The notes below the pieces were generated by a model. That model made no database searches. It had not been told where the DNA came from and saw nothing but the letters and a program-made list of their open reading frames with translations. From positions 4,864,001 through 4,928,000 of the forward strand of contig OZ253580.1 of assembly GCA_965263035.1 (NCBI GenBank): a stretch of DNA of 64,000 nucleotides, in the 5' to 3' direction. Source of the stretch: Acidobacteriota bacterium. Lineage in GTDB: Bacteria > Acidobacteriota > UBA6911 > RPQK01 > JAJDTT01. Shown piece after piece: positions 6,876-23,612 of this stretch (positions are counted from its first letter, which is position 1; each line of letters begins with the position of its first letter). The position numbers and the translations under genes were made by a program.

Positions 6876-9800
6876 ATGAGTAGAGTACTTAGTTTGAGCC
6901 TTGTTCTGGCACTCTCCTGTCTTCCCCTGCTGGCACAGGAGAATGTAGGAACCGTGACCGGTGCGGTCCGGGACGAGAGCGGCGGCGTGGTTCCGGGAGC
7001 GGAAATCTCCATCACCAACGTCGGCACCGGCATCGTGACCGACACCATCACCAGCGACGCCGGGATTTACGCCTTCAATTCGGTCGCCATCGGAGAATAC
7101 CGGCTCACGGCCACCATGCCCGGCTTCAGAACCCTGGAGCAGAGCGGGCTCCGCGTGGTGTCCGGCGAGGTCCTGACCATCGACGTCACGTTGTCGGTCG
7201 GCGACGTGGCCGAGACCGTGGAGGTGATGGCGACGCTTCCCACCATCGAGAAGCAGTCGAACAAGGCCGGATACGCCCGGGTCAACGAGGAGATCGCCCG
7301 TCTGCCCATTGCGGTCTCCAACAACAACCGCCAGGCGCTTTCGTTCCTGCGCACCATGCCGGGGGTGAACTACAATCCCAATGACAGCAACGAAAACAAC
7401 GCCATGAGCACCGCCTTCATTCATGGCACGCCCAATGCTTCTCCCAGCTACACCATCGACGGCGTGCGGGCGGGCAGCTCCACCCACCAGAATTCCCGGG
7501 ACGACACGGCGCCGATTCCCGAGATGGTGCAGGAGTTCCGGCTCGACACCAACACGAATGCGGAGCATGGCTGGGACAGCGGCGTGGCGATCACCCTGAT
7601 CTTCAAGTCGGGCACCAACGAATTTCACGGCGACGCCTTCTGGTACTTCCGAAACAACATTCTCGACGCCCGGCCCTGGCTGGCCCCGAGCAAGAGCGTC
7701 AACCGGCAGAACGACTACGGGTTCGTCCTGGGAGGTCCCATCTGGAAGAACCGCACGTTCTTCTTCGGCGGGTTTGACGGCTACAAGTTGCGGACTGCTC
7801 CGGGAGACTCGGTGCAGACCGTTCCCACCGCAGCCATGCGCAACGGTGACTTCAGCGAGATTCTGGGTGCCGAGATCGGGACCGACGCTCTGGGCCGGCC
7901 GATCCACCAGGGCGCCATCTATGACCCCATGAGCACTCGTTCGGACGGTCAGGGCGGGTTCATTCGAGACCCGTTCCCCAACAACATGATTCCTGCGGAT
8001 CGTTTCAGCACCGTCACCAAGAACCTGATTTCGCGGTTCGGGCTGCCCAATCGGCCGGGTGTGACCAACAACTGGATCGGCGGCCTGACCTCCACCCCGG
8101 TCGACAAGACCTCCTACTACCTGAAGGTCGATCATCAGCTTGACGAGGCGGGCGACCACCGGCTCACGGTCGGATGGGAACAGTCGTGGAAGGCATCCCG
8201 GTCCAACTACCCCTCGGTCCAGGACGAGTCGATCTCCAGTCTTCACAGGAACGACGAGGTCCAGTACCGCTACCGTTTCAACTACCACTACACGATCCGG
8301 CCCAACGTCCTCTTCAACCTCCGGACCGGCGTCACCCGGACGCCTCGGGTCATCGGCACCCAGGGTCTCGCCAACGACAATACCGGTGCGGAAGTCGGCA
8401 TCAAGGGAGTGCCGGGGCCCATCGCCCCCCAGGTCGGCGTTCAGGGCCAGAGTGCCTACGGACCCATCTTCCAGAAACTCATCGACCCCAGCCAGACCAT
8501 TCCGGCCAACATGGACGTGACCTGGGTCAAGGGGTCCCACAACTTCAAAGTGGGCGCTGCCTATCTACTTTCCGTCTCCAAGCAGAACCTGGCCCTCTTC
8601 GATCAGGGATCGTTCAGTTTCTCGGCCCTGGAGACCGGATTGCCAGGCAACGCGAACACCGGGTTCGGTTTCGCCAGCCAGTTGTTGGGCGAAGTGGACT
8701 CGGCGTTTGTCTGGAGCCAACGTGACTTCCGTCACAACGGCGGGGCTTGGGGCATTTATTTCCAAGACTCGTGGCGCGCCACCAGCAAGTTGACCATCAA
8801 CTACGGTCTCCGGAACGACGTTTTCGTTCCTTTGGGCGAGACCTATGACCGGATCGGAGCCTTCAATCCCACCATTCCCAACCCGGGAGCGGGGGGACTT
8901 CCCGGATCCCTCTGGTTCTGGGGCGACGGCCCGGGACGCAACGGGTTCAAGCGGGTGGCGGACACGCTCTGGAGCCAATGGGGACCCCGTTTGGGATTCG
9001 CCTATTCTCCGGATGACAACACCGTCATCCGGGCCAGCGGCGCCTACATGTACTTTCCGCTCTTCGGCGCCATGACCAGCGGGTTCAATACCCCCTTCCT
9101 GGGTTGGACTCTGGACCCGTCCGTCAGGAGCCTGGACGGCGGTCTGACCCCGGCTTTCAACTGGGACAACGGTTACCCGGACCCCATCCCGGATCTACCC
9201 GTCCTGGAACCGGACTTTGCCAACGACCAGGCGGTGCAGTATCTCAACCGGGACGACTTCAAGGCGGGCCGCACCTTGACGCTCAACTTCGGGCTGGAGC
9301 GGGATCTGGGTTGGGGGCTGGCCATGCGGGCCAACTACCACGGCAAGTTCTCGCACAATCTGCCCAGCCACGAGGCGGTACGGATGAACCAGCTCAGTGT
9401 CGCCAACTTGAGCTTGGGAAACACTCTGTTGGCGCCGGTCGGTTCAGACCAGGCCATGGCCGCCGGGATTGCCGCTCCGTATCCGGGATTCGGGGGACCT
9501 GTCGCCCAGGCGCTCCGACCGTTCCCGCACTTTTTGGACATCCAGCAACGGGCCGCCCCCGTGAGCGATCTGAACTACCACGCCCTGGTCCTGTCGTTGC
9601 AAAAGCGGTATGGACACGGTTTGAGCTTCATGCTCAACCACACGATCTCCAAGGCCCTCGGCAACGTCGGTTTCTCCCAGCAGGGGCATGGCTTCGCACC
9701 GATCCAGCATACCTCGCAGCGGCATCTCCGATATCACTACCAGCACGATCGGCCCCAGAACCTCTCTCTGAGTTGGCTGTATGAACTGCCGTTCGGTCCG

Positions 9801-10307
9801 GGAAAGCGCCTTTTCAACGGTGGAAATCTATTCTCCAAATATGTGCTCAGCGGTTGGACCCTCGGCGTACAGCACAACTACTTCTCCGGGCAGCCGATCA
9901 GCGTGAGCAGCCGGGTCAGATATCCGGGAGGTTTCGGACCCATCTGGCCGGTCTTGCGTCTGAACTCGCAGATCAAGACCAACACCATTTGCGGGGAGTA
10001 CAGTCCCGGTGGCCGATTCCTGAACGTCAACGCGTTCATGAATGCAGCTCCTTGGACTTTGGGGAACACCAGAACCTTGCCCAAGGAACGGGGCTGCAGC
10101 TATTTCAACGAGAACGCGACGCTCCAGAAGGACACTCAGGTCAACGAGGACGTGAATGTTCGCCTGGGAGTCGATTTCTTCAACATGTTCAACCGCCACA
10201 TTTGGGGCGGTCTGAACACCGACACCGGAAACGCGGCGGGATTCGGCCTGTTCGGCTCCACGTCCCGTCCCAGGTTCATCCAGTTGCACCTCTCGATCCA
10301 CTTCTGA
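6876..10307 (+). CDS. TonB-dependent receptor (Oar-like), copy 2
   Basis: GAGGAG RBS before ATG 6876. Close paralog of 2488-5958 with long identical peptides (TLPTIEKQSNKAGYARVNEEIARLP, RDDTAPIPEMVQEFRLDTNT); ends HLSIHF. Confidence 0.92.
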   Translation: MSRVLSLSLVLALSCLPLLAQENVGTVTGAVRDESGGVVPGAEISITNVGTGIVTDTITSDAGIYAFNSVAIGEYRLTATMPGFRTLEQSGLRVVSGEVLTIDVTLSVGDVAETVEVMATLPTIEKQSNKAGYARVNEEIARLPIAVSNNNRQALSFLRTMPGVNYNPNDSNENNAMSTAFIHGTPNASPSYTIDGVRAGSSTHQNSRDDTAPIPEMVQEFRLDTNTNAEHGWDSGVAITLIFKSGTNEFHGDAFWYFRNNILDARPWLAPSKSVNRQNDYGFVLGGPIWKNRTFFFGGFDGYKLRTAPGDSVQTVPTAAMRNGDFSEILGAEIGTDALGRPIHQGAIYDPMSTRSDGQGGFIRDPFPNNMIPADRFSTVTKNLISRFGLPNRPGVTNNWIGGLTSTPVDKTSYYLKVDHQLDEAGDHRLTVGWEQSWKASRSNYPSVQDESISSLHRNDEVQYRYRFNYHYTIRPNVLFNLRTGVTRTPRVIGTQGLANDNTGAEVGIKGVPGPIAPQVGVQGQSAYGPIFQKLIDPSQTIPANMDVTWVKGSHNFKVGAAYLLSVSKQNLALFDQGSFSFSALETGLPGNANTGFGFASQLLGEVDSAFVWSQRDFRHNGGAWGIYFQDSWRATSKLTINYGLRNDVFVPLGETYDRIGAFNPTIPNPGAGGLPGSLWFWGDGPGRNGFKRVADTLWSQWGPRLGFAYSPDDNTVIRASGAYMYFPLFGAMTSGFNTPFLGWTLDPSVRSLDGGLTPAFNWDNGYPDPIPDLPVLEPDFANDQAVQYLNRDDFKAGRTLTLNFGLERDLGWGLAMRANYHGKFSHNLPSHEAVRMNQLSVANLSLGNTLLAPVGSDQAMAAGIAAPYPGFGGPVAQALRPFPHFLDIQQRAAPVSDLNYHALVLSLQKRYGHGLSFMLNHTISKALGNVGFSQQGHGFAPIQHTSQRHLRYHYQHDRPQNLSLSWLYELPFGPGKRLFNGGNLFSKYVLSGWTLGVQHNYFSGQPISVSSRVRYPGGFGPIWPVLRLNSQIKTNTICGEYSPGGRFLNVNAFMNAAPWTLGNTRTLPKERGCSYFNENATLQKDTQVNEDVNVRLGVDFFNMFNRHIWGGLNTDTGNAAGFGLFGSTSRPRFIQLHLSIHF

Positions 10308-10567: not shown

Positions 10568-12034
10568 CTACTTCGCCGTGTCGGCAACGGCGAACAAGGC
10601 ATTTCGGTTGGTGATGTAGAGCACTCCGTTGGTCGCCACGGCCGTCGTGTAGACGGAATCTCCCATCTCGTTGACGGCCAGCTCCTTCATCGTCGTGCCG
10701 TGCTCCAGCACCGCCACGTCGCCGTCCTCGTCTCCCAGATAGACCTTGCCGTCCACCAGATAGGGAGACCCCCAGACCGCGGCCAGCATGTCGTATCTCC
10801 AGTGCCTCTTTCCGGTGGCGAGATCCAGGCAGTAGAGAAACCCGGTCAGATCGGCCGCATAGAGCAAGCCGTCCCGAATCGCCACGGTGGACATGCTGCG
10901 GCGGAAGTCCTCGCCACCCACGTGCCAGATCCGTCCCTTCTCGGTAATCTCTCCGGTCTGGGTCGCGTCGATGGAATAGAGGTGACCGGGACCCTCGCCA
11001 TGTTCCGGGTCCTGCCCCACGCTGAGCAGCACCTTGTCCTGGTATAGGACCGGCGTGGAGATGATGTTGTTCCGGGTGCCGCGCCCGCCGAGCTTCCACT
11101 CGGAGACCTTGGGATTGAGGTCGAACTTCCAGATCAACTCTCCACCCTGGGGCTCGTAGGCGTAAGCCCAACCGTCACCCCCGGCAAAAATGACCTGGGG
11201 CCGGCCCTTGACCAGCCCGTATGTGGGTGAGGACCATTGCCCGTGCAGGGTGTTCTCGCCCGGATCGCTCCGCTCCCAGACCAGTTCGCCGGTCTTCTTA
11301 TGCACGGCGATGAACGCGGGCGCGTCCGGCATGGGGAGATCCAGGTGCCCCTCGTCCACGCCGTTGGAGGTGAGCAGGAAGATCAAATCGCCGGCTCCCA
11401 CCGGGGAGGAGGTGGCCAGATTGTGAGGGAAGACCCCCAGCTCCTCGATCATGTCGTACACCCAGACGATGTCCGCGTCCTCGTTCTCCCGGTATTTTTC
11501 GTCCTGAAACGGGCCGTCGTTCTCCCCGTCCAGAAACCCCTCCACGTCGGCGCAGACCAGCTCGGCCCGGTTGCTGACGTAGTAGATCCGGTCCCCGTCC
11601 ACGAAGGGAGAGGAACAGATTCCCTGTTCCGGCCAGTCGTTGACCCGTCCCGTGGGGAGCTTGTCGTGGGTGGCCTGCCACAGCATCTTTCCGGAGGCCT
11701 CGTCCAGACAGACGATCACCCCCTTGTCACCCGTGATTCCGGGCCGGTGATGGGCGTTGTTGTTGGTGCCGATGAAGATCCTTCCATCGGAGATCACGGG
11801 GTTGCCATAGGTCTGGGACCCCAGCGGCATCTTCCAACGGATGTTCTCGCCGCTGGAGACGTTCCATCGGTGGGGCATTCCCTTCTCCTCCGAGACCATG
11901 TTCCGGTCCGGAGTCCCGCCCCACATCTTCCAGTCCCCCGCGTGGACCTGAGGCTGACCCGGCGCGGCAAGAATTGCCGCGGCCAGCAGGATGCACGGAA
12001 CGCGGACGATCCTGGCTCGACTGCTAGTCATCAT
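10568..12034 (-). CDS. PQQ-binding-like beta-propeller repeat protein (BamB-like), secreted
   Basis: Signal peptide, DWKMWGGTPDRN, repeated SSP and CLDxxTGKxxW propeller motifs. Confidence 0.85.
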   Translation of the reverse strand: MMTSSRARIVRVPCILLAAAILAAPGQPQVHAGDWKMWGGTPDRNMVSEEKGMPHRWNVSSGENIRWKMPLGSQTYGNPVISDGRIFIGTNNNAHHRPGITGDKGVIVCLDEASGKMLWQATHDKLPTGRVNDWPEQGICSSPFVDGDRIYYVSNRAELVCADVEGFLDGENDGPFQDEKYRENEDADIVWVYDMIEELGVFPHNLATSSPVGAGDLIFLLTSNGVDEGHLDLPMPDAPAFIAVHKKTGELVWERSDPGENTLHGQWSSPTYGLVKGRPQVIFAGGDGWAYAYEPQGGELIWKFDLNPKVSEWKLGGRGTRNNIISTPVLYQDKVLLSVGQDPEHGEGPGHLYSIDATQTGEITEKGRIWHVGGEDFRRSMSTVAIRDGLLYAADLTGFLYCLDLATGKRHWRYDMLAAVWGSPYLVDGKVYLGDEDGDVAVLEHGTTMKELAVNEMGDSVYTTAVATNGVLYITNRNALFAVADTAK

Positions 12035-14252
12035 TCTTCACCACCTTGAAGTTGTCGAAGAGAATCTCGGGACCGTCGCTCTTGGATGTGGTTCCGACGG
12101 AGTAGCCGTAAATGCCGGCGCTGCCTTCCCGGTTCGGATGCGGGTCCAGCACCTCAATGTTCCAAGCCTCGGGCTCCGGTTCCTCCCTGGGCCAGACCTT
12201 CGCTCGGACCCGTGCCTGTCCATCCTCCAGCGACACCGAGAACTTGGCTCGATACCAGACCTCCGGTTCCCAGGGAAATGCAACGTCGTGCCTCAGGCGC
12301 GGCAGCGGGGACCAGGTCTCGATCCGCAGCCGCTTTCTCATGCCCATCATGACGAATCGGTAGCGGCTGTTGATCAGCCCCATGTCCGGCTTGAAGCGTT
12401 TGCGTGCCAGCTTTCCCAGCAGGTCCGCTTCGACCGTATACCCTCCCGGGACGGGGGGAGTGGCATAGGCTCGAAGCCTCATGAAGGGCGGGGAAGGCCG
12501 CGTCTTGGAGGCCAGCTTCTTGAGCACCTTGCCTCCCGCCTCGATGACTTGCGTCTTGGACGCCACGCCTATCCAGCCGGGAGGCACCGAGCCGACCGCC
12601 AGCGACTCGAAGTCCTCGTGGATCGGCAGATTCGGAGCGATCCGAATCCGAGCAGCGGCGCTCAGACCACTGGGGCTCTTGGCGGTCACGAGACCCGCCG
12701 AGAATGCCTGCTCCTTGCCGGCGTTGAAATTGCCGTCCGCGCCGACTGTTCCCGAGACGCCGCTTGCCGACCACTCGACGCTGGCCGGGGAGGGAGTCGA
12801 TCCCACTGAGTCGAATCGAAGCGCCTTCAGCTGGATCTGCTCTCCGGGTCTCAGCGTCGCTTCCGCCGGCACGACCCGAAGGCTGCCCTTGGACCCCGCT
12901 GCCGGGCGCGCCGTCTCTACTGGAGTCGAGGCTAGCTCTTGCGCCTGTACCTGTTGCCCCGCTTTTCCTAGGCAGTAGATGCCGTAGCGGCTCATGAAAT
13001 AGACGCGTCCGCTGACCACGGCGGGAGAGCCGAAGATCTCGTCCACGGTGCCGTCGGGACGCTCGAACACCTCCTTGTCCAGGGACACGCAACGATCGCC
13101 CTCGTCGCGGAGAATGTGGAAGATGCCGTTCTGTTCTCCCACGTAGATCACGCCGTCGCTGGTCACCACGGGCGACCCCTTGCCCACCCGGCCCAGGTTG
13201 TATTCCCAGTGGATGTCACCGCTGGCGGCGTCCATGCAGTAGAGATTGGCGCTGTTGTCCACGGCATAGAGCCGGCCGTTGGCGATGGCGGGCGAGGCAT
13301 ACCCGAAGGTGTAGCCGTCATGGCGCCAGACCACTCCGCTCTCCGTGATGTCCCCCGTCCGGGTTCCGTCGACGCAGACGATGCCTCCCATCCTGGAGGT
13401 GTGCAGGTTCTCTTCGCTGTGAGAGAGGTACGCTCGGTCTCCGTCCACCACCACGGAAGCGTTGAGACCGCGCTTGCTGAGCCGGAGAGTCCAGGCCTTC
13501 TCACCGTTTCGGGCCCGCATTCCATACGCGTTTCCGTCAGCCGTCGCGGCCACCAACATCCGTTGACCGCCCATGACGGCTGTCGCCGGAACGGCGTAGG
13601 TGGTGTCCAGGGGCGTGCCTCCCGGTGCCGACCACCACTGGATGGCGCCGCTCCCTTTGTGGAATGCCACATATCGATGGAGAGGCCGAGCCTGATTCCC
13701 CCAACTGGAATTGAGAAAGCTCACCACGACCCGGTCCTCGTCCAGGATCGGCGTGTGCAGCCGCCCCCCGTAACCGCTGATGCGGCCCAACTCCTCCGTC
13801 ATGGAGACCTTCCAGACCTCGTCGCCGTCACGGCTGAGACAGAAGAACTCTCCCCCGGTGGCGTGAGCGTAGATCCGGCCCGAATCCGGGTCCCCGACCA
13901 GGGCCGTCCATCCCACCCGGTTCTCCACGATGTCGGTATGGAAGACGTTGAATCGCTTCTCCCACAGCTTGCGGCCGGTCCGGGCGTCGAGCGCCACGAT
14001 CCGTTCCCCCCGCGTCGCCCCTTTCCCCACCGGCAGGATGGCGAAGAGCCGGTCGTCCAGGATGATGGGCGTGGTCCTCCCACCCTCGTCGAACTTCCAG
14101 AGAAGCCCATCCCCACCCTGATCCCAGGAGGTGACGGCGGCTGCTTCCGGGGCGGCGCCGTTCTGGTTCGGGCCGCGCCAGTACGGCCAGTCCGCGCCCA
14201 GGGCCGGTTGGATGGTGATCCAAACCAGGGAAAAGACTCCAAGTATTCTCAA
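12024..14252 (-). CDS. PQQ-binding-like beta-propeller protein with C-terminal Ig-like and lectin-like beta domains
   Basis: ADWPYWRGP N-terminus, ALDARTGRKLW repeats, C-terminal beta-rich extension; TTG start with GGAGG RBS. Confidence 0.85.
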   Translation of the reverse strand: MRILGVFSLVWITIQPALGADWPYWRGPNQNGAAPEAAAVTSWDQGGDGLLWKFDEGGRTTPIILDDRLFAILPVGKGATRGERIVALDARTGRKLWEKRFNVFHTDIVENRVGWTALVGDPDSGRIYAHATGGEFFCLSRDGDEVWKVSMTEELGRISGYGGRLHTPILDEDRVVVSFLNSSWGNQARPLHRYVAFHKGSGAIQWWSAPGGTPLDTTYAVPATAVMGGQRMLVAATADGNAYGMRARNGEKAWTLRLSKRGLNASVVVDGDRAYLSHSEENLHTSRMGGIVCVDGTRTGDITESGVVWRHDGYTFGYASPAIANGRLYAVDNSANLYCMDAASGDIHWEYNLGRVGKGSPVVTSDGVIYVGEQNGIFHILRDEGDRCVSLDKEVFERPDGTVDEIFGSPAVVSGRVYFMSRYGIYCLGKAGQQVQAQELASTPVETARPAAGSKGSLRVVPAEATLRPGEQIQLKALRFDSVGSTPSPASVEWSASGVSGTVGADGNFNAGKEQAFSAGLVTAKSPSGLSAAARIRIAPNLPIHEDFESLAVGSVPPGWIGVASKTQVIEAGGKVLKKLASKTRPSPPFMRLRAYATPPVPGGYTVEADLLGKLARKRFKPDMGLINSRYRFVMMGMRKRLRIETWSPLPRLRHDVAFPWEPEVWYRAKFSVSLEDGQARVRAKVWPREEPEPEAWNIEVLDPHPNREGSAGIYGYSVGTTSKSDGPEILFDNFKVVKNDD

Positions 14253-14809
14253 ACCCGACCTCCTGCGATGAAAAGGTTCACGTGACGCTCATTATCAACG
14301 CAATGCCCACGACGTTTCACATTCTCCCCCTCCCCTGTATGGGTAGCAAGAGAAGAGGGAGCAGAGGGATAAGAGGGATAAGACCCTCTCCTAAGAGAAG
14401 ATTGGCATTTTCCCTCTCCCGCGAAAGCCCGAATATCGTCTTGGGACTGAATCTGCCGCCGAATCTGTCCGCACCGCTGGCGAGTCAGTTTGAAGCGACT
14501 CCCGATCACTGACAGTCTGACACCCTGAGAAGCGAGGCGCCAGATCTTCCTGTCTCGCGGTCTCAGGTCGATGAGCCCGTTCTTGATGCCCGTCTTTTCT
14601 AGTGTCCACCGGCAGTTAGCCCGCATCCGCTGAGTCTCCGGAGTTCGGTCGGTGGGATCCTCATTCCCCACAACATGACGCCGGCAGCCGGCCCGGATGT
14701 TGGTCCACTCAAGGCACGGCTTGCGGTGAACCTTCCACGCCTCCGTGGGTGAAGGTTCAGGCTTCCGGTGGAGTCGGATCTCAAGCAATTCCAACAGCCG
14801 GAAATTCAT
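14249..14809 (-). CDS. Hypothetical protein with sigma70 region 4-like helix-turn-helix
   Basis: LRPRDRKIWRLASQGVRLSVIGSRFKLTRQRCGQIRRQI fits an HTH pattern; ATGA-coupled to the upstream ORF; low-complexity tail crosses the element boundary. Confidence 0.5.
   Translation of the reverse strand: MNFRLLELLEIRLHRKPEPSPTEAWKVHRKPCLEWTNIRAGCRRHVVGNEDPTDRTPETQRMRANCRWTLEKTGIKNGLIDLRPRDRKIWRLASQGVRLSVIGSRFKLTRQRCGQIRRQIQSQDDIRAFAGEGKCQSSLRRGSYPSYPSAPSSLATHTGEGENVKRRGHCVDNERHVNLFIAGGRV
14291..14305 (+). repeat. Candidate att core, left copy
   Basis: ATTATCAACGCAATG vs ATTGTCAACGGAATG at 23605-23619 (13/15 identical); lies at the compositional boundary. Confidence 0.45.
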
Positions 14810-15171
14810 GCGGCCGCCTCAGAGCTTCGGGAGAGACCCGCCGCCTTAGCCGATGTTTTGACTTCTCGCAACCACCACGGCGACGCACGGAAACGGATCG
14901 CGCAGGATCTCCCGTCCGTAGGATCGTTCAGAGCCTCCACATCCACCAGATCCGGGGTGATCCTGGGCTTTTCGTTATCGTCGAAGGGCAAAGGCTCATT
15001 TTGATCCTTTGCCTCGTAAACCCTACCGGATGCTGGATTCTGATCTCGTCGGTCGCTGCCGGGAGTCTCCCAGTCGGTCGCGGGAGCATTCGACCGAGCC
15101 AGTGTGACCAGCTCGGATTTCAGCTCCGCTTTCTGTGCGGCGGTTCGTCGTGTTCTCTTGTGCTTGCCCAT
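14806..15171 (-). CDS. Hypothetical protein, possible C-terminal ribbon-helix-helix
   Basis: Basic N-terminus; AIRFRASPWWLREVKTSAKAAGLSRS resembles an RHH/CopG strand-helix-helix. Confidence 0.4.
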   Translation of the reverse strand: MGKHKRTRRTAAQKAELKSELVTLARSNAPATDWETPGSDRRDQNPASGRVYEAKDQNEPLPFDDNEKPRITPDLVDVEALNDPTDGRSCAIRFRASPWWLREVKTSAKAAGLSRSSEAAA

Positions 15172-15663
15172 TGTCCCGAATCTAGCCGGGACAAGGATAA
15201 ACTACGCGACTGACGTTCGAGAGAAGGGAAAGGCGCGGGGATCAGGAGGGTTGGCTAGATCCGGTTCCGATGGTCCCGCGCCCGTTGTACGAATCAGGAG
15301 AGATCATTCTCCAGAGTGACAGTGCGTCACCCCGAGAGAGTAGCAGAATCGGCTGACCATAAAAAGCCTAAAAGTGTTCTAAAGTCTCCCCGGTGGAAGC
15401 GCCATGGAGGACCGCTCGGAAGCGGAGGAACGCTTAACGGACTCCTCATGACTAGACCATCCGACAGCACCAAACGTCGGTGAGGAAGGGGACGCGAGAG
15501 TTAGGTTTAAGGTGTCCAAGCCGGATCCAACGGGCGCGCCCCCATAGAGCGTCTATTGTATCAGTAAAAACTGTTGCGATCCCATAGCTGAGAAGCGGAT
15601 GGCGTCTAACTCCCTGTACTGCGTTGGAAGGATTGAACGGACGGGAGCATGGCCCGTTTGGGG

Positions 15664-16767
15664 CTAGTCCCGCTCGGCCTCGACAGAGCCCAACAAGCCG
15701 GTGAGGTTTGCTGCCTCTTCCAAGGATTTGCCCGACTGGACAAGTTTCGAAAACGCTGAAGCTCTTCCGATCAAATCCCCAGCCCATTGGTCGAAGTCGA
15801 GGCGGATCTCCGCTTCCAGCTTCACGCTCAGTTCAAGCTGCACCAGCCGAGCAATGGGTTGGATCAGGTTCAAAAATGTACGCCGGAGCCCTTCTCTTTG
15901 GGCAGTACCCGTCGCGGACGGGTCAAAAATGGATGGACTCACCCCGCAAGCGGCCAAGATCGCGGCCTGGGCATCCCGTCTCAATTCCACGAGCGCCGCC
16001 CCTGGGGAAGGGCCAAGCCGAGAAGGTACGAAATCTTTTCGAGGAGCTGCGCTGCGGCCCTCGCCCCAGCCGCCCGACGTCGTTTCAACCAATATCGATC
16101 TGCCGCGCGCGTTTCGGATATCACCGCTCAAGGCAGCCAACGGATCGGCCGCCGGGTCACCATCCGCATTTTCCCCCGAAGCCGAGTCAGGAACCGCGAG
16201 GAGATTCGCAATCGGCCCGGATACTTCGTCGGCGAGACTTCGTTCAACCTCAGAGTTTAGCTTCGAGGATATGGCGGAGAATTTCAGAGGAGAAACACCC
16301 GCATGAGGGCTGCCTGGGTTGGTGCCCCAGGTGACGTGGACCACTCCCTCGTAACCGACCCGCCGGGTTGTCGTCATCGAGGGACCGGCCAGGTCTACGT
16401 CTACGACCCAACTTTTCTGGTCGTAGCTGCCAGTGAACATCCAGGAAGCAACGGGAAACAACCTCACGATGCCCGCCTCCGAAACGTCGATCATGTGCAT
16501 GGATTCGCCCCGGAGAATGAGGGCCCGCCCGATCTGCGCCAGGACTCCCGGAGTCACGGCCGCACGAATGTAGCCTGGACCGCTCACCTTTGCCCCGGCC
16601 AAACTTCGAGCCAACAGGCCCGCCGCCATCTCCGTCGCCGCGGTCGCAGATGATCCCCCGGTCGAGGCTTGGCTCTGGAGCGCCTGGAGCGCGAGCGCCG
16701 TCACGTCGGCCTGTCGCCGCTCCGCCCGCCGCCATGGGATACCAACTTCCCTCCCCTGGAACTTCAC
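15664..16767 (-). CDS. Phage portal protein (HK97/lambda-like)
   Basis: 367 aa; ALILRGES, VVHV, GVSPL, ILAACGVSPSIF and IQPIARLVQLELSVKL match the portal pattern; lies next to head genes. Confidence 0.8.
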   Translation of the reverse strand: MKFQGREVGIPWRRAERRQADVTALALQALQSQASTGGSSATAATEMAAGLLARSLAGAKVSGPGYIRAAVTPGVLAQIGRALILRGESMHMIDVSEAGIVRLFPVASWMFTGSYDQKSWVVDVDLAGPSMTTTRRVGYEGVVHVTWGTNPGSPHAGVSPLKFSAISSKLNSEVERSLADEVSGPIANLLAVPDSASGENADGDPAADPLAALSGDIRNARGRSILVETTSGGWGEGRSAAPRKDFVPSRLGPSPGAALVELRRDAQAAILAACGVSPSIFDPSATGTAQREGLRRTFLNLIQPIARLVQLELSVKLEAEIRLDFDQWAGDLIGRASAFSKLVQSGKSLEEAANLTGLLGSVEAERD

Positions 16768-17075
16768 GCTAGAGACCCCCGACGAACTCGCCAGGAAGAG
16801 AGCAACCCTGCTGCTCCAGAATGCGCTAGGGCGCTGGATTCGCCTTTGAAGCGCGTCTTGCGGATCGTGATGCTGCCGGTTTTGATGTTCAGGTTCGGCG
16901 TCATGTCGGCCAGCCAGCCCGCCGCCCTGATTGCGGCTTCGTTCTGGATGGAGTCCGGAGCGTCCGGCGCATATCGCTCTACCAACTCAGTGACCACCGG
17001 CAACAGGCGAGAAGCGACGGCGGGTTTCCCGTTGATTGCGGCCGCTAATTCGGCTTCATTGAGTGTGACTGCCAT
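16764..17075 (-). CDS. Putative head-tail connector (HK97 gp6 / SPP1 gp15-like)
   Basis: ~103 aa helical protein (RLLPVVTELVERYAP...IQNEAAIRAAGWL...GLLSSWR) between protease and portal; GTGA coupling to the portal gene. Confidence 0.55.
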   Translation of the reverse strand: MAVTLNEAELAAAINGKPAVASRLLPVVTELVERYAPDAPDSIQNEAAIRAAGWLADMTPNLNIKTGSITIRKTRFKGESSALAHSGAAGLLSSWRVRRGSLA

Positions 17076-17115
17076 TCGTTCCCCGCGCTGACTACGGATA
17101 AATTTTCGAAGTGGT

Positions 17116-17598
17116 CTACCAGTAAGGCTTCCATCGAAGTCCCGCCCGTCGCCCCTTCTCCCGGACACTGACGCCGGACCCCGAGTAACTGGGATCGTCT
17201 ACCAAGCCAGCACCGGCCAAAATTGCCTTTTCGATCATTCTCACGTTGCCCTCATAACGCTCACTCTGCGCCCGAAACTCGACACTCAAGCCGGTGTAGA
17301 CGCCAGCCCTGACCATTTCTGCCGCATCGCGGCCGCTGGCAGTATTCAAGAATGGCGCTTCAACGCGGACCTCTTTCCCTTCCACCTTCGGGACGAAGCG
17401 CAAAAGCGCCTGTTTCCGATCGTGCTGAACGTTGAGGATCACCCCGGACTCTGGCCACGACAGCGAATTCTCCAGGAAGATTTCCGCCCGATCGCTCGCC
17501 CGCTCGCCGTACGTCAACAAAACGCCCGCCAGCAAGCCGGGAGATTGCCTTGAGTCGTCTTCCCGAAACTCAACCGCGCAACACCTAATTTCTAGCAT
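17116..17598 (-). CDS. HK97-family prohead protease
   Basis: ILNVQHD (catalytic His), GLSVEF (catalytic Ser), LVDDPSYSGS. Confidence 0.85.
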   Translation of the reverse strand: MLEIRCCAVEFREDDSRQSPGLLAGVLLTYGERASDRAEIFLENSLSWPESGVILNVQHDRKQALLRFVPKVEGKEVRVEAPFLNTASGRDAAEMVRAGVYTGLSVEFRAQSERYEGNVRMIEKAILAGAGLVDDPSYSGSGVSVREKGRRAGLRWKPYW

Positions 17599-17608
17599 TT
17601 CCTACCTA

Positions 17609-17899
17609 CTACGACGGCGTTAGAATTAAGGTGGCCGCGCCCGAATCGACCCGGATCCAAACCGTCTCATTTCCAACTTCAAGAATTCGAGTCGGGACCG
17701 CAGTTCCGCGAGCCGTCGGCCTCCAGGGGTGCCCGGTGACCGTCGGTTCTACCAGGTCGTCGGTTCGTGCCGTGAATACGGTAGCCAGCGGCGATAGGCC
17801 ACGAATGTCCATGGTCCACACGTCGCCCGCTTCAAATCCCGCCGCCAGGGTCAGGTTCAGCCAGCTTGTCGTCAGGTCGATTTGTTGCGTCCAGGCCAT
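17609..17899 (-). CDS. Small beta-rich hypothetical protein, possible virion decoration protein
   Basis: 96 aa, Thr/Val/Trp-rich; TAATG coupling within the head operon. Confidence 0.5.
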   Translation of the reverse strand: MAWTQQIDLTTSWLNLTLAAGFEAGDVWTMDIRGLSPLATVFTARTDDLVEPTVTGHPWRPTARGTAVPTRILEVGNETVWIRVDSGAATLILTPS

Positions 17900-18357
17900 T
17901 ACCTATTCCTGTTGATGCGTTCGTACCATCTACCGATCGCCCGCCCGCATTCTGGATCAAGGATGCCCGAGCTCGCCGACTTCAGCCGCTCGACAACCGT
18001 TGCCTCGCCGGGATCGAGGACGATCTCCTTCGCACCCGGCCCGAGCATTTCCAACAGCCGCCGCCGTCTCGCCGGTGATCCGTCTGAGTTGGTGGCCACG
18101 ATATCGAAACCCATTTCCCGGCCTCGCCGGATTACGTCCTGCCTCAAACGCTCAGTTATCGGCAACAGGGAGAGATCCGCACCGCGCCGGATCGGGAATC
18201 GGCCTGTAGTCGGGTCGCGCCTGGTCCCGGTGATCGAATTAAAGACAGAAGTGAAATCCGCGAGGATCGCGTTCCGACCAGTCGTTCCGAGAGTCGCCAA
18301 GGCAAGTTTGCTCTTCCCGGTCCCGGCTGGCCCTGAGATCAATACGCTACCAGGCAT
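17899..18357 (-). CDS. Small P-loop NTPase/kinase (AAA_33-like)
   Basis: Walker A VLISGPAGTGKS at the N-terminus, 152 aa, GGAGG RBS. Confidence 0.7.
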   Translation of the reverse strand: MPGSVLISGPAGTGKSKLALATLGTTGRNAILADFTSVFNSITGTRRDPTTGRFPIRRGADLSLLPITERLRQDVIRRGREMGFDIVATNSDGSPARRRRLLEMLGPGAKEIVLDPGEATVVERLKSASSGILDPECGRAIGRWYERINRNR

Positions 18358-18383
18358 TTTACGCCAGTGCCTCCGCTCACCCG

Positions 18384-19580
18384 CTAAGAGTGCTGAACCT
18401 GGACGCGCTTCCAGCCGTCAGTCTCGATGACTTTGAACGCGACCAGCAAAATCGCAGTCAAGGAGATGATTCCTGTGGCCTTGCCCGAAATTTCGTCTAC
18501 CAAAAGCTGTATACCCTGCCACACGGGAGCAACCGCGTCCTGCCTGCCGCTGCCGAGACGGACGATGCAATCCTGCTTAGGATTGCTCCCGGTTGTCGCT
18601 GCCGGGACATGCGCCGAGATCCTGACGCCCGCCGTGATGTCCCGGAGACGTTCGATCGCGTTTCTCTCGCCGCTACTCGTGTTTCGATACAAGCTGGCCA
18701 TGCTGACCAAAGTCTCGTTCCCGATCAGAACCCGGAGTTCCGATTCGGAGGAAACCCGCCTGCCCGTAACCAGCCCGTAAGCAAGTCGAGAGAGATACGT
18801 GGTGTGAGTTGCGACCGCTGACGACGATGTGCGGGAAACGTCCGAGACGATCTGAGCAACCATCCGAGAATCGAGCCGTTCCGACAATCCACTCGAAAGC
18901 GCGAGCCTCAAGGCTTGATCCATGTTTGGGAATTTCGCCAAATCTGTCCTGCGGAATGAGAACGCGGCAGAAATTCGACCAGGTTCCAAAAGTTCCGCGC
19001 TGAACGCGCCGTCGGTCTCGGCATGACTTGTCGACGTGGTACTCGGCCCGTGGACCGTCGGCCTTGTCGTCAACACCGGAAAAGACGCCGCCCCCGCCTC
19101 GACCCTGGGAGAAAAAATTCCCATCCAAGCGGAATCTCCGAGAGCGAAAGCCGGTTGCAAGATCGGTGCCTGAGAAGCCGCCGCCGGAGTGTGAGATGTG
19201 GACGCCGGGACAGTCGCCACGGCCCGCTGTTCCAGCATCTCCAGCGGGATCATGTCAGCCGGGAGCTTGAAGTGATCCTGGATCTCCTTCTCCGCTCCGG
19301 AGCTGCTTGAACGCCGCTCGATTACCGCCTGGAAGATGTTTCCGACGTTCGCCCGATCCGACAGCCGCGCCAAAGCGGAATTCTCTCCGCCGTCACTCGG
19401 CTGGATGTCGCCCTCGGCCTTGATCGCGGCCCGGAGCTGGATCTCAGTATTGCCGAGATCCGTTTCGGCCTTCGTGATCGTTTCCTTGTCTTCCGCAGTG
19501 ATCGTTTCCTTGCGAGAAAGATCGAGCAACTTCGAGCGAATTTCCGACGCCCGAATGGTGAGCTTCTGTGCTTGAGTCAA
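18384..19580 (-). CDS. Phage major capsid protein (HK97 fold with N-terminal coiled-coil scaffold)
   Basis: TTG start with GGAGG RBS; helical N-terminus; LEPGRISAAFSFRRTDL...DQALRLALSSGLSERLD resembles the HK97 spine helix; ~398 aa; clustered with protease and portal. Confidence 0.75.
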   Translation of the reverse strand: MTQAQKLTIRASEIRSKLLDLSRKETITAEDKETITKAETDLGNTEIQLRAAIKAEGDIQPSDGGENSALARLSDRANVGNIFQAVIERRSSSSGAEKEIQDHFKLPADMIPLEMLEQRAVATVPASTSHTPAAASQAPILQPAFALGDSAWMGIFSPRVEAGAASFPVLTTRPTVHGPSTTSTSHAETDGAFSAELLEPGRISAAFSFRRTDLAKFPNMDQALRLALSSGLSERLDSRMVAQIVSDVSRTSSSAVATHTTYLSRLAYGLVTGRRVSSESELRVLIGNETLVSMASLYRNTSSGERNAIERLRDITAGVRISAHVPAATTGSNPKQDCIVRLGSGRQDAVAPVWQGIQLLVDEISGKATGIISLTAILLVAFKVIETDGWKRVQVQHS

Positions 19581-19630
19581 CGTGCTGTCCTCCGGTTGAT
19601 TGATCGGTTCCAGGTCGATTTTAGCACAGT

Positions 19631-19646
19631 TGGCACGGGAATTGCT
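19631..19646 (+). promoter_or_regulatory. Sigma54 -24/-12 motif pointing antisense into HNH/terL
   Basis: TGGCACGGGAATTGCT matches the consensus TGGCACG-N4-TTGCW exactly. Confidence 0.55.
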
Positions 19647-19651
19647 CATAG

Positions 19652-19667
19652 AGCAATCATAGTGCCA
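19652..19667 (-). promoter_or_regulatory. Sigma54 -24/-12 promoter of the capsid operon
   Basis: Minus strand TGGCACTATGATTGCT (GG-N10-GC), ~70 bp upstream of the capsid start. Confidence 0.6.
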
Positions 19668-19671
19668 AATC

Positions 19672-20046
19672 TCAGTCCACCTTCCTCAAATATCGGTTGG
19701 AGGCTGTTTCAGTCTCGACCAGGTGATCGACCAGCCGGCTCCACCGCTTCTCAGCAGCCGTCAACGGCCTGGAATTCTCACGTGCCGTCTTGCGGATGTG
19801 GCAATCCCGGCAGAGCGTTTGCAGGTTGTCCGTATGCTCCCGCCCGCCCTGAGAAAGCGGGATTATGTGATCCACTTCCAGGCGGCCCGCCTTGCCGCAG
19901 TCGATGTTCTGGCAACGGAAGTTGTCTCGATGTAGCACCCGCATCCGAAGCACCCGCCACGCCCGTTGAGAGATCGTGTGCCGCTTCGCCCGCTTCGCCC
20001 GCTTCGCCAGTGGAGAGCCCGGCGTACCGCCCCAATTCGCCATCAT
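19672..20046 (-). CDS. HNH endonuclease (HK97 gp74-like terminase cofactor)
   Basis: RDNFRCQNIDCG...LEVDHIIPLSQGG...NLQTLCRDCHIRKT; ATGA-coupled to terL. Confidence 0.9.
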   Translation of the reverse strand: MMANWGGTPGSPLAKRAKRAKRHTISQRAWRVLRMRVLHRDNFRCQNIDCGKAGRLEVDHIIPLSQGGREHTDNLQTLCRDCHIRKTARENSRPLTAAEKRWSRLVDHLVETETASNRYLRKVD

Positions 20047-21467
20047 GCCAATGCCGTCCTCAATCGGCGGGGCGCCGCGTTCTTCTCGGACCTATGGAAC
20101 ACCCCCGCCACAAGCACCAGGGAAGCCGCCACGTCGTCTCTTCCTCGGTTGGAGCTATCCTTCTTCACCAACCGGACGGACCCTTGGTCGTCCGACTTGA
20201 CCCGAGCCGCGGCGAGCGAAGCCTCGAACAGGGAGTGAGAGCTTTTAGGGCATGACAATGGGCCATCCCTCACAATGCGCCGTAGAGAGTCAATGTCCTC
20301 CGTGGCCTCCGACCACCTGGCAACCCGTGGGACAATCGGAATCCCAGGACCGATAGCATCCTTCAGTGCCTTCAACCGGAACCTGTCACAGACGACAGAC
20401 GCCGGACGCCCCCAGCGCCTCATGACAGCTTGATGTAGATGATGCGGTTCGGGGTCACGCTTTCCAGGTACGGTGACAAGCTGGCCGCCATCCTCGAGGA
20501 GCTGGTAAAGGCCCGCAGGGACATTATCCCGCTGTTCCTGCTTGCGGAGGCTGGGGATACCCGGTGCCACCGCTATGCACTCTGTACGCCCATTCCTCCA
20601 CATCCCGCAGGCCGCGTCCCATGCTCTTCCCCCTCCGATATCAATCGAAACGATCGGGCGACCTACTCGGGGAGGGACCGGTCGGGCCTTCACCATCTCC
20701 CACTCCTCGACCGTGATTAAAGTGACCTCCTCGTCCATGGTCGGGAGGTTCATGCGGTAGCTGAGGAACCGCGACTTCAAGCGGGAGTCCCGCAAAGCCG
20801 CGTCCCTTTCCTCGATCAACTTCGCCAGGAACCGACCCGATATCCGAGTCAGGGGATTGACCCGCTTGATCTCCTCTATGTCGTCCCACAGCTTGCGCTT
20901 CCCCTGGAGCGTCATGACGTAGGTGCTCCCGTGGGAGCCACCGGCCACCATGTCCGGCCACCAGCCTGTCGTAGTGGGAGCCAGAGTTCCGATCAAGATC
21001 AATCGAAGTGGTGAGCCCGGCTTCCCCATTGCCGTCGAAAGGGAGTCGTATAACAACTGACCATTATTCACCTGCCAAGCTCCAGGTTCGTCCCCTACCA
21101 CCAGCGGCACATTGACCAGTCCAAACGACCCCTTCGCGTTGGAGCTCAACACCCGCACCCGCGTGTTCGATTCCACGTGGCGGATGCCGATCCTGTTGAA
21201 GGAATCCAGGAACCTGTAACCGCCCAGCGGTTCCAGATCGGCCCGGACGAAGTTGTAGACGATCCTCGCCTGTTCGAGGCTTGCCGCCGTCAGAACAACC
21301 TCTTTCCCGGGATGGAAAAGGGAGTCGCCCGGAATCATCGCCCGCTTCACCAGGTGAGCCCCGAGGAAAGATTTCCCATTGCCACGAGGGGCACTGAGAC
21401 AGGCCAGGTCAATCCCGTCGGCCGTCGCCCGCTCGATGAACTTCCGCTGAAACGGTTCAAGCCTCAT
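20043..21467 (-). CDS. Phage terminase large subunit
   Basis: LEPFQ adenine-binding motif, Walker A PRGNGKS, Walker B VVGDE, LILIGT, nuclease-domain SIDIG and RDD. Confidence 0.88.
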   Translation of the reverse strand: MRLEPFQRKFIERATADGIDLACLSAPRGNGKSFLGAHLVKRAMIPGDSLFHPGKEVVLTAASLEQARIVYNFVRADLEPLGGYRFLDSFNRIGIRHVESNTRVRVLSSNAKGSFGLVNVPLVVGDEPGAWQVNNGQLLYDSLSTAMGKPGSPLRLILIGTLAPTTTGWWPDMVAGGSHGSTYVMTLQGKRKLWDDIEEIKRVNPLTRISGRFLAKLIEERDAALRDSRLKSRFLSYRMNLPTMDEEVTLITVEEWEMVKARPVPPRVGRPIVSIDIGGGRAWDAACGMWRNGRTECIAVAPGIPSLRKQEQRDNVPAGLYQLLEDGGQLVTVPGKRDPEPHHLHQAVMRRWGRPASVVCDRFRLKALKDAIGPGIPIVPRVARWSEATEDIDSLRRIVRDGPLSCPKSSHSLFEASLAAARVKSDDQGSVRLVKKDSSNRGRDDVAASLVLVAGVFHRSEKNAAPRRLRTALA

Positions 21468-21567
21468 TTTGACCCCCGGAGGCCCTTTTCCATGCACGCT
21501 CTAGCCCACCCCACGGATCTGGGCCCCTCCCCCCGGATCGGCGGTGCCATATGCCCGCGCCCCGGCC

Positions 21568-21825
21568 CTACTCAGCAACACGCCAGCGGGCCTGCGCCCG
21601 CTGCTCGGTTCGAACGTCCTCAGCAATCATGGCGTCAGCAATCTCAAAGCAAACCGCCGCAAGCGCAGGGATTCGCGCTTGGAGATCCGCTTCCGGTTGT
21701 TCATGCCCAGTAGTCCAATTCGAGGACGCCAATGCCTGCCCCGCGTACCACTGCCGCAGGTTCATGTTCTTCATGGGCATTCTCGCCCGGTACAACATTT
21801 TTTCATTCAGTTCCTTGTCAGTCAT
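21568..21825 (-). CDS. Phage hypothetical protein (MTLRDYFA...ADAM family)
   Basis: MNLRQWYAGQAL...CFEIADAMIAE matches a common small phage protein pattern; GGAGGG RBS. Confidence 0.7.
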   Translation of the reverse strand: MTDKELNEKMLYRARMPMKNMNLRQWYAGQALASSNWTTGHEQPEADLQARIPALAAVCFEIADAMIAEDVRTEQRAQARWRVAE

Positions 21826-22019
21826 GATTCCCTCCATTCGTTCCCACTCTGCCAAGTGCACACATAAACACAGTGCACAGAGGATCCCCTATGACTACTG
21901 CAATCCGTTACACTTCTCCGTCCATATATAGAGCGCTCTGAGCACTCCCAGCAGAGCGGCTCGTCAGTGGCACCATGTCTCCGCCTTTCCATGTGATATC
22001 GTTTCTCACTCATCATCAT
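21822..22019 (-). CDS. Small Cys-rich hypothetical protein
   Basis: AAGGAGGA RBS; CWEC and CVYVC; ATGA overlap with the next gene. Confidence 0.5.
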   Translation of the reverse strand: MMMSEKRYHMERRRHGATDEPLCWECSERSIYGRRSVTDCSSHRGSSVHCVYVCTWQSGNEWRES

Positions 22020-22038
22020 TCCTCCTTGTAAGTTCAAC

Positions 22039-22347
22039 TTAGATTGCTCGTTCCTTCCACAGGATCTGCACAGGGACTCGACCCCGACCGATGACGCTCC
22101 GGTAGTCTCCGGCCAGCACGTCGGCGGCTGGCTTAAGGCACCATTTATGAGCTGCCCCAATATGCCCCCACCCCTCCGCGATGAACCTCGTTCCCCGATG
22201 CGGAAGGCGAAGCACCCGCACACAGTCGAAGTCCGGAGCCGAGAGCCCCGACAGAGTGAACAGCTCGAAGTCGAATACGACTCGGTGCGGTTCGCTCCGC
22301 TGTCGATAGATGGCGAATACCATGCTCTGTTCCTCCAAGTGATTCAC
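22039..22347 (-). CDS. Hypothetical protein
   Basis: GTGA overlap with the recombinase stop; 102 aa. Confidence 0.5.
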   Translation of the reverse strand: MNHLEEQSMVFAIYRQRSEPHRVVFDFELFTLSGLSAPDFDCVRVLRLPHRGTRFIAEGWGHIGAAHKWCLKPAADVLAGDYRSVIGRGRVPVQILWKERAI

Positions 22348-23522
22348 CCTTGCCCATTCTGAGATTCGTGTAGCCGAGAGACAGCCCCGCGTCGAGCATC
22401 AGTTGTCTCTGTGTACCGCAGCACGGTCGCAGTACTCTTCCACCGGCCAGCCCGCGCGACTTCCTGGATTGGCTCGCGGTTTTCGGTGAGGGTCTGCGCC
22501 ATGCCACGCCGGAAAGAGTGACCGCCATACCGTCCCTTGAGCCCGCATTGCTCACACCTGTTCTTGGTGATGTCCCGGATCGTGCGAGGATGCATCCCTG
22601 TATCGGATGGTCGCCCCGAGTGAAACACCTTACGGAACAGCGGTCCCGGACCGATCCGGGAGCTCTCAGTCCAGACCCGCACCTTCATCATGGCTGGCGG
22701 GCTGATAAACAGGGTAGCTCCCTCGCCGTTCTGGTCTGTCTTGGAGCGTCGAATAGTGAGCAGCCCGGACCCGTCGTCTTGGTCTTCCAGGTCCGACACT
22801 TCAAGCGCGGCCAACTCGCCGACCCGCAACAATCCGTCGAATAGCAAGCTGAAGATCGCCGCATCCCGGATGCCCCGGAGCCCGTACTCCCCTTCACAGT
22901 GAGCCACCAGTTTCGCCACGTCCGCCGCCCTCAGTTCCTTCACAGACCCCTTCGCCCGGGACGCTCCTTCCCGTCTGATGCGCTTCATGACCGCCCTACT
23001 CAGCACCCCGTAGGGATCAGGGTCGCCCATGGCCTTGGCCCGGAACACCAAGACCCGAACATCAAGACCGATCGTTCCCGGCGACACGGGAGGATCGGTT
23101 TGCTCGAAGCGATCTTCCAGGTATCGGGAAAGGATGGCGTCCGTGATCTCGGAAGAGCCGGAGCAGTTCACCAAGTGCTTGTCGATGCGGTTGATGATGC
23201 CCAGGTATTGGGTCCGCGTAGACAGCGCCAGACTCGCCAGCGCGACGTCCAGCTTGTCACCAGCGGTCAGCTCGGCCGCCGGCGTGGTCCACCGCTCCGA
23301 AGTCTCCGTGCTGGGCAGACCAGCTTCCGCCCGGTACTCCTCGTAATCGTTCAGAGCTTGCTGCTTCATGCAGAGCAGGGAGTGCATCCTGTAGTCGATC
23401 AGAGCCTGAAACTCCTCGATGGCTTGATCGATTTTCTCGATGTGAGTTTCCATCCGTGCTACTTCGTCGTGCGGGAGAATCTGGATATTGAATTTCACCG
23501 GCTCCCGCTTCTTCTCTGCCAT
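22344..23522 (-). CDS. Tyrosine recombinase/integrase, Cre-like clade
   Basis: RDAAI...LLRVGEL (R), RRSKTDQ (K), GHSFRRG (HxxR), GRWKS (W), VLRY (Y); AGGAG RBS before ATG 23522. Confidence 0.92.
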   Translation of the reverse strand: MAEKKREPVKFNIQILPHDEVARMETHIEKIDQAIEEFQALIDYRMHSLLCMKQQALNDYEEYRAEAGLPSTETSERWTTPAAELTAGDKLDVALASLALSTRTQYLGIINRIDKHLVNCSGSSEITDAILSRYLEDRFEQTDPPVSPGTIGLDVRVLVFRAKAMGDPDPYGVLSRAVMKRIRREGASRAKGSVKELRAADVAKLVAHCEGEYGLRGIRDAAIFSLLFDGLLRVGELAALEVSDLEDQDDGSGLLTIRRSKTDQNGEGATLFISPPAMMKVRVWTESSRIGPGPLFRKVFHSGRPSDTGMHPRTIRDITKNRCEQCGLKGRYGGHSFRRGMAQTLTENREPIQEVARAGRWKSTATVLRYTETTDARRGAVSRLHESQNGQG

Positions 23523-23583
23523 TTCGTTCTCCTGGTTGGGTTGGTGATGATCGGTCACCAGGAGAGCTTACCAGAGTTGGGGG

Positions 23584-23612
23584 ATAATGGGTAGTGTCCC
23601 GTCTATTGTCAA
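23584..23612 (-). promoter_or_regulatory. Putative sigma70 promoter of the recombinase operon
   Basis: Minus strand TTGACA-N17-CATTAT; the -35 box lies inside the right att-like repeat. Confidence 0.5.

Follow-up and report, generated by a model that had tools for sequence, protein, structure and literature searches.

The window (the whole 64,000-nt stretch of acidobacterial DNA analysed here) holds, between positions 14249 and 23600, what looks from its gene content like a capsid-only island of ~9.4 kb. All of its genes lie on the minus strand, and ordinary cellular genes flank it on both sides. An integrase gene is followed by two small ORFs, the gene of the large terminase subunit (terL), an HNH endonuclease gene, a gap of 91 nt, the capsid gene, two small ORFs and a prohead protease gene; a further small ORF separates the protease from a weak portal match, and three more small ORFs, the last ending near 14249, complete the island. 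No tail genes were recognised in the island (window 14249-23600), and its borders showed neither a tRNA gene nor convincing att repeats. Among the surrounding genes are two large TonB-receptor-type outer-membrane beta-barrels, each with a carboxypeptidase-regulatory-like domain (window 2488-5958 and 6807-10307), and PQQ/BamB-like beta-propeller proteins that adjoin the island (window 10568-14252). The features discussed below are as follows.

22344..23558, minus strand: tyrosine integrase of the island (PF00589, E = 1.8e-15), with a sigma70-like promoter at 23612-23584
20043..21497, minus strand: large terminase subunit, terL (phrog_9, E = 1.2e-33)
19672..20046, minus strand: HNH endonuclease (PF01844, E = 1.3e-13; phrog_589, E = 1.9e-22); stop codon TGA at 19674-19672, 3 nt before the palindrome
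19630..19668, no strand: interrupted palindrome with outer boxes TTGGCAC/GTGCCAA, inner boxes ATTGCTC/GAGCAAT, 4-nt spacers and a 3-nt centre
19631..19646, plus strand: sigma54-type site TGGCACGGGAATTGCT, GG at 19632-33 and GC at 19644-45; faces antisense into HNH/terL; predicted start ~19657
19652..19667, minus strand: sigma54-type site TGGCACTATGATTGCT, GG at 19666-65 and GC at 19654-53; faces into the capsid gene; predicted start ~19641
19588..19593, minus strand: capsid ribosome-binding site (RBS) GGAGGA, read in the sequence
18384..19580, minus strand: major capsid protein (398 aa), start TTG at 19580; N-terminal helical delta-like domain and HK97 fold
17116..17598, minus strand: prohead protease (PF04586, E = 6.4e-5; phrog_80, E = 8.6e-12)
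15664..16767, minus strand: portal-like protein, weak match (PF04860, E = 6.2e-7; 29.3 bits, under the 39.1-bit cut-off)

The 398-aa protein has no match in Pfam or PHROG. Its AF2 model, built from 10 homologues (pLDDT 65.6), retrieved encapsulins and phage HK97-fold capsids in Foldseek (E down to 3.6e-9, probability 1.00), and comparison of its alignment profile with PDB sequences returned a marginal match to a major capsid protein (E = 0.26). The modelled fold thus backs the original prediction, made from the letters of the window, that the gene downstream of the palindrome encodes a capsid protein. Aligning paralogue N-termini placed its start at TTG 19580; ATG 19649 of the ORF list lies inside the palindrome and was rejected. 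A 152-aa ORF adjoining the capsid gene (window 17899-18357, minus strand) shows a sub-threshold P-loop/AAA match at its N-terminus and, at this length, cannot be an enhancer-binding protein; the sister island in locus L021, described below, has a 149-aa ORF at the matching position.

A facing pair of sigma54-type boxes before the capsid gene

The 91-nt gap, which extends from the HNH stop codon to the capsid start (TTG 19580), contains a 39-bp interrupted palindrome at 19630-19668, in which TTGGCAC, GGGA, ATTGCTC, ATA, GAGCAAT, CATA and GTGCCAA follow one another. Its outer and inner boxes, of 7 positions each, pair perfectly (14 of 14), the four spacer positions form no Watson-Crick pairs, the loop measures 3 nt, and the 18-nt arms are 78% complementary. 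Each strand reads TGGCAC-N5-TTGCT (plus arm 19631-19646, minus arm 19667-19652), and in both arms the GG and GC that define a sigma54 site within TGGCAC-N5-TTGC are exactly 10 nt apart, as had been claimed for this very position. A chance match at the 11 specified positions is expected at ~1e-7 per arm. The two facing sites are 5 bp apart, the four boxes are spaced by about one helical turn, and the predicted 5' ends of the face-to-face pair would overlap by ~17 nt. From the capsid-facing arm, a leader of ~60 nt leads to the RBS and the TTG at 19580, the placement and orientation of a sigma54 promoter; the claim that one arm faces the capsid gene therefore holds.

Exact copies of TGGCAC-N5-TTGCT in the window are confined to the two palindrome arms. 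With one mismatch allowed, the window contains 4 matches compared with 0.78 expected from shuffles, a count reached in 1 of 100 shuffles. The whole 6.2-Mb genome holds seven occurrences of TGGCAC-N5-TTGC[AT], the palindrome's two arms included, and 0-10 occurrences of the same boxes at each of 15 other spacings, so that one such site alone is no rarity and only mildly special. The mirrored pair, on the other hand, is unique in the genome and present in only one of 401 sampled genomes of the phylum, the window's own. The exact palindrome with its fixed 3-nt centre had no match in viral contigs or in metagenome contigs. Two of the other exact sigma54 words in the genome (n = 5) lie directly upstream of genes, namely an HlyD/ABC-transporter operon and a 95-aa ORF, and a further exact word adjoins an operon for an NtrC-type activator and a histidine kinase. 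Judging from these positions, the host appears to use the canonical sigma54 consensus.

The machinery that such sites need is encoded in the host. Its genome has a single rpoN gene (PF04552, E = 1.8e-57), which answers the check on the host that the original prediction had proposed. It also has 10 matches to PF00158, the family of sigma54 activators; six of them are strong and none falls in the window. No PF00158 match was obtained among the island ORFs scanned, consistent with the original prediction, in which no enhancer-binding protein had been recognised in the element, and no upstream activator site was identified.

Sister islands and near-identical variants

Relatives of the capsid are all distant (25-41% identity), and copies occur in 6 of the 401 phylum genomes, the window's own included. 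Three more paralogues with 30-32% identity are found in the same genome, near 366973, 5103399 and 5353564; on this evidence, several capsid-only, satellite-like islands may coexist in it. The closest sister is locus L021, from a Candidatus Versatilivoraceae MAG, which is the sole capsid relative that a single-protein query detected in genome contigs (39% identity). The same query detected no close capsid relatives in viral or metagenome contigs, and a DNA search for close relatives matched only one of 15 family genomes, again the window's own. The order terL-HNH-capsid-protease-portal is unusual and is common to the sister islands.

A sigma54-like site near the capsid start is absent in all 10 relatives. 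Sites with at most one mismatch were found neither in L021 nor in seven other sister loci nor in two of the three 18-kb in-genome paralogue regions, and the third region has two, a background level (0.48 per 18 kb). Conservation in sister elements had been put forward as a test of the original prediction; for these distant sisters (25-41% capsid identity) the test fails, which counts against the sigma54 idea by that prediction's own criterion. The absence from sisters points to lineage-specific acquisition of the motif, not to a family trait.

Most relatives that keep HNH beside the capsid gene have a short gap between the two, suggesting that co-transcription with terL-HNH is the family norm. 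In L021 this gap is ~105 nt long and contains a textbook intrinsic terminator, with a 17-bp stem paired throughout its length and T8 behind it (L021:2931-2980). The terminator occupies the same position in the same gene order as the island palindrome, whereas the palindrome has unpaired spacers and no T-run. It suggests that this sub-lineage regulates the head operon apart from terL-HNH. Since it is located only ~30 nt before the capsid start, its sequence would imply read-through or antitermination control of the head operon of L021.

In metagenome contigs from runs X5, X7 and X8, which span the palindrome, 19607-19668 is unchanged; the nearest variant change is 19669 A>C, followed by eight changes at 19723-19746. 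Because overall divergence is too low, this retention is weak evidence at most. The eight substitutions within 24 nt form a local hypervariable patch in the 3' coding region of HNH among the metagenome variants (window 19723-19746); apart from 19669 A>C, the next 139 nt from the patch toward the capsid start are unchanged.

The mirrored design in viral genomes

We scanned IMG/VR with the pattern TGGCAC-N5-TTGC-N(1-15)-GCAA-N5-GTGCCA and found the mirrored design in at least 121 viral contigs (L024-L144). The backwards pattern gave one match, and the intra-arm spacing proved strict (N5 in at least 121 loci, N6 arms in one, N4 arms in none), which places the design more than 100-fold over controls in viral DNA. 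The viral loci listed form 59 DNA-similarity clusters with GC contents of 31-68%, and since one cluster accounts for 34 of them, the loci are not independent. Between the arms, the spacing is loose: the central gap of the 126 unique palindromes listed is 3 (16), 4 (27), 5 (26), 6 (19), 7 (30) or larger (8), and 7, the commonest among the matches listed, is counted as a likeness to the island copy. Spacer identity between the arms of these 126 listed palindromes is at chance (mean 1.55 of 5), so the selection for pairing expected of an RNA hairpin is not seen. At least 126 unique viral palindromes, with spacer agreement at chance and a strict N5 within the arm, thus extend to viruses the argument for conserved boxes and a free spacer that had been made from the single island copy. 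Fixed spacing within the arm, loose spacing between arms and no selection for pairing together argue for two independent bipartite sites, and not for a hairpin or the operator of a rigid dimer.

The positions left free by the search pattern are informative as well. The extended sigma54 consensus is Y-TGGCAC-G/A-N4-TTGC-W, and, to our knowledge, sigma54 is the sole factor with such bipartite specificity. In 246 arms listed, TGGCAC is preceded by Y in 74% and followed by R in 100%, and TTGC is followed by W in 84%, all of which fit this consensus. The R/Y position after TGGCAC shows no co-variation between arms in the viral class. A further count among the matches listed found R after TGGCAC in 117 of 118 viral arms, which is stricter than in the E. 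coli ChIP sites of the available part of PMC4591121 (G 8, A 10, T 6, C 2; Y in 8 of 26). At this position the island's plus arm has the G typical of the viral class, whereas its capsid-facing arm departs from the class with a T, found in none of the 118 viral arms among the matches listed and in 6 of the 26 E. coli sites.

Back-to-back pairs are frequent too (96 loci), in part because palindromes occur in arrays. These arrays comprise 2-4 tandem copies in alternating orientation with a period of 43-54 nt or ~94-108 nt (L054:2501-2619, L061:2501-2679, L064:55-227). The island copy, by comparison, is single. An all-against-all blastp of the ORFs of 80 viral loci and the island revealed no protein family common to most loci; the Pfam family GP88, an annotation without a function, occurs in 12 viral loci. 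An operator would be expected to combine fixed half-site spacing with a cognate regulator; the central gap of 3-7 and the missing shared protein family argue, though not decisively, against assigning the palindromes to that class.

For 80 viral loci with flanks, among the matches listed, crude ORF calls placed the motif between divergent genes in 27 cases, co-directional genes in 31 and convergent genes in 9. Viral copies occupy points of control, and several members share the island's design directly before head genes. In L049 the motif lies 10 nt past the stop codon of the scaffold gene and ~120 nt before the major head gene, in L091 it stands directly before a head protease/scaffold gene, and in L047 it follows a stop codon and precedes the RBS of the tail sheath gene. 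It is located upstream of or beside terminase genes in L054, L034, L072, L042, L071 and L082, and near terminase genes in 7 of 36 annotated viral clusters (among the matches listed). Cultured Nipunavirus relatives of L049 lack the motif before the capsid gene, and the equivalent scaffold-to-capsid gap of the cultured relatives holds a different hairpin. Lone half-sites near palindromes show no bias toward gene starts (12 vs 10 within 150 nt). Where a pair is imperfect and lies between co-directional genes, its perfect arm faces in the direction of the genes in 8 of 10 cases, a small sample in which related loci were kept. A perfect consensus sigma70 promoter stands between array and genes in L054. 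We found a PF00158 activator in none of 10 viral records and a sigma54 DNA-binding domain in none of five.

One locus (L067) belongs to the cultured Pseudomonas phage vB_PaeM_C2-10_Ab02 (Pakpunavirus), and its region matches 163 Pseudomonas phage records; for three other viral loci, the nearest cultured relatives infect Proteobacteria. The mirrored pair of vB_PaeM_C2-10_Ab02 lies at NC_042113.1 80960-80993 (L250:3001-3034), in the 620 nt of non-coding DNA that separate ORF142 from ORF143. More sigma54-like sites occur in the terminal repeats of this phage (137-643), where 20 were counted with at most one mismatch vs 7 in the reversed control. The sites are clustered in complete viral genomes, most densely in a 44-kb phage that has direct terminal repeats: in its 790-nt divergent control region, 10 half-sites share a stretch of 500 nt, with iterons adjoining. 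At L242:6440-6720 (G410), three copies of the 20-nt iteron cgttggttaaagctgaccag and three copies of the hairpin-forming repeat ccacaagccgttgtgg stand beside a sigma54-type array, an arrangement that looks like an origin or control hub.

Proposed reading and alternatives

Building on these observations, we propose that the palindrome is a face-to-face pair of sigma54 (RpoN) -24/-12 sites and one of a class of cis-elements found repeatedly in phages. Host sigma54 RNA polymerase would sit on it as a closed complex, and the minus arm (predicted start ~19641) would serve as a tightly silent, activator-dependent internal promoter of the capsid-protease-portal operon. The mirrored arm would be a second site with a melting region overlapping the first, so that only one could open at a time; this mutual exclusion would follow from the geometry, since the region predicted to melt at either site falls within the other. 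As the island encodes no activator, a host or helper-phage protein would have to take that part. What we infer from sequence is that sigma54 binds, that the arm acts as a promoter, that the two sites exclude each other and where the activator comes from; the same holds for the switch put forward in the original prediction. That sigma54 recognises the palindrome in some capacity, as a promoter or otherwise, seems to us probable; for the specific reading in which host sigma54 polymerase binds it and the capsid-facing arm is the activator-dependent promoter of the head operon, we would put the chances at slightly below even.

Sigma54 promoters are the tightest off-switches of bacteria; they require rpoN and an ATP-driven activator, and transcription from them starts ~12 nt downstream of the GC. 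We favour the promoter reading for the geometry of its leader, for the tight-off logic that a satellite-like island would be expected to follow, and for the terminator found in L021. Against a simple promoter stand the orientation of the lone viral sites, the arrays, the sigma70 promoter in L054, the lack of viral activators and the T in the capsid-facing arm. The promoter facing antisense, too, has no obvious use and counts against this reading.

Bidirectional sigma70 promoters arise from symmetric -10 elements. There, as in the palindrome, symmetry puts sites on both strands; they are back-to-back and divergent, whereas the palindrome pair is face-to-face. As far as the available part of PMC4591121 describes them, the canonical sigma54 promoters of E. 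coli glnA, pspA and rtcB are alike in their TGGCAC-N5-TTGC core, GG-N10-GC spacing, Y/W flanks and position upstream of an operon; the island differs from them in its two facing sites 5 bp apart, with no upstream activator site identified and no activator among the scanned ORFs. The strings 'palindrom', 'convergent' and 'bidirectional' have no occurrence in that part of the article. Pseudomonas phage YuA depends on sigma70 and sigma54, according to the available part of PMC10914365 (citing Ceyssens 2008), and its host-sigma54-dependent promoter is a precedent for the use of RpoN by mobile elements; unlike the island, YuA has no match to the strict pattern (at most one mismatch) and no mirrored pair. 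Searches of the open-access literature retrieved no paper that describes mirrored sigma54 sites for phages. While a sigma54 phage promoter itself thus has precedent, what looks new is the recurrent face-to-face arrangement of sigma54-type sites on mobile elements.

If a capsid-only island does gate its head genes via sigma54, induction would be wired to a signal from the host or helper and not to a repressor, which would offer a way of testing how satellite-like islands perceive their helper. A broader and more tentative idea, which we think rather doubtful as a whole, is that mirrored sigma54 boxes are a widespread, so far undescribed cis-element by which phages and satellites capture scarce host sigma54 polymerase. 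They might do so as a leak-proof bidirectional switch or as a sponge that shuts the host sigma54 regulon during infection, and the acidobacterial island would be one instance, with head production gated. The switch would have to use a non-PF00158 activator, proposed because no PF00158 was found in 10 viral genomes. Seen in 121 or more viral contigs, among them those of a cultured Pseudomonas phage genus, and with an activator in none of the 10 genomes checked, the design would represent a recurrent and apparently unreported phage route to engage or disable host sigma54.

Several of the viral data would also fit with sigma54 or its holoenzyme binding the pair without starting capsid transcription, either on a decoy that sequesters scarce sigma54 after DNA amplification or on a protein-based insulator or roadblock that separates the terL-HNH module from the head module. 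The dense arrays in alternating orientation, the lone sites without orientation bias, the lack of activator genes in 10 viral records and the array upstream of a perfect sigma70 promoter are all of this kind, and in two lineages the spot of the palindrome is taken by a terminator or hairpin in relatives. A single chromosomal copy, however, cannot titrate sigma54, and the sense arm is the better kept in 8 of 10 imperfect pairs. For roadblocks, the RNA-seq data of the authors of PMC4591121, as given in the available part, effectively ruled out repression by intragenic E. coli sigma54 sites. We regard a role of this kind as unlikely, though worth keeping in mind.

It is less likely still that the palindrome is an operator with a half-site that happens to be sigma54-like and serves another DNA-binding protein, whether of island, helper-phage or host origin. 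A central gap of 3-7 bp combined with fixed intra-arm spacing would be hard to accommodate for one rigid oligomer, no protein family is common to most of the 80 loci or to the island, and all extended positions fit sigma54. The same motif in 59 listed clusters with GC contents of 31-68% points to a conserved host factor. Such an operator would nevertheless account for the symmetry of the site with its four boxes about one helical turn apart, for the resemblance of the arrays to operator or iteron clusters, and for an R after TGGCAC that is stricter than in E. coli sigma54 sites.

The palindrome might also act as RNA, that is, as a stem-loop in a terL-HNH-capsid transcript that serves in 3'-end protection, in processing or as an attenuator setting the capsid/terminase ratio, with the likeness to sigma54 sites being coincidental. 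It begins 3 nt past the HNH stop codon, and RNA folding predicts a hairpin of 7 bp, a 3x3 internal loop and 8 bp (z-score of the 141-nt region, -3.28). The terminator hairpin in the same place in L021, the closest sister, and the hairpin before the capsid gene in Nipunavirus relatives of L049 make a role in punctuation or at the RNA level plausible. Yet neither strand of the palindrome has a T-run, the terminator scan has no entry for it, and it does not have the make-up of an intrinsic terminator, a GC-rich paired stem with a T-run behind it. All four spacer positions are unpaired, viral spacers are no more complementary than expected by chance, co-variation is missing at the R/Y position, a search of the region in Rfam returned no relevant family, and coincidence would have to produce an 11-position match (~1e-7) in each arm. 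Overall, we hold the RNA explanation to be improbable.

We give very little credence to a packaging (cos/pac) site or a recognition site of the HNH endonuclease or terminase, for which one might cite the adjoining terL-HNH genes and the 7 of 36 annotated viral clusters (among the matches listed) with the motif near terminase genes. Terminase recognition sites are phage-specific, whereas the same motif stands beside terminase small subunits of different PHROG families; many viral copies lie far from any terminase gene, and the HNH-capsid gap is too short in most sister islands. A functionless chance palindrome is the most far-fetched of the explanations: single exact sigma54-like words are only mildly enriched (7 at N5 vs 0-10 at other spacings) and the motif is not conserved in distant sisters, but the mirrored pair is unique among 401 phylum genomes, its design exceeds controls more than 100-fold in viral DNA and, as a weak point, metagenome variants keep the palindrome unchanged.

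Downstream of the palindrome, a second stem is predicted on the minus strand (window 19570-19629), in which CUGUGCU pairs with AGCACAG. It would enclose the capsid RBS and start codon and, if it forms as modelled, could limit translation initiation.
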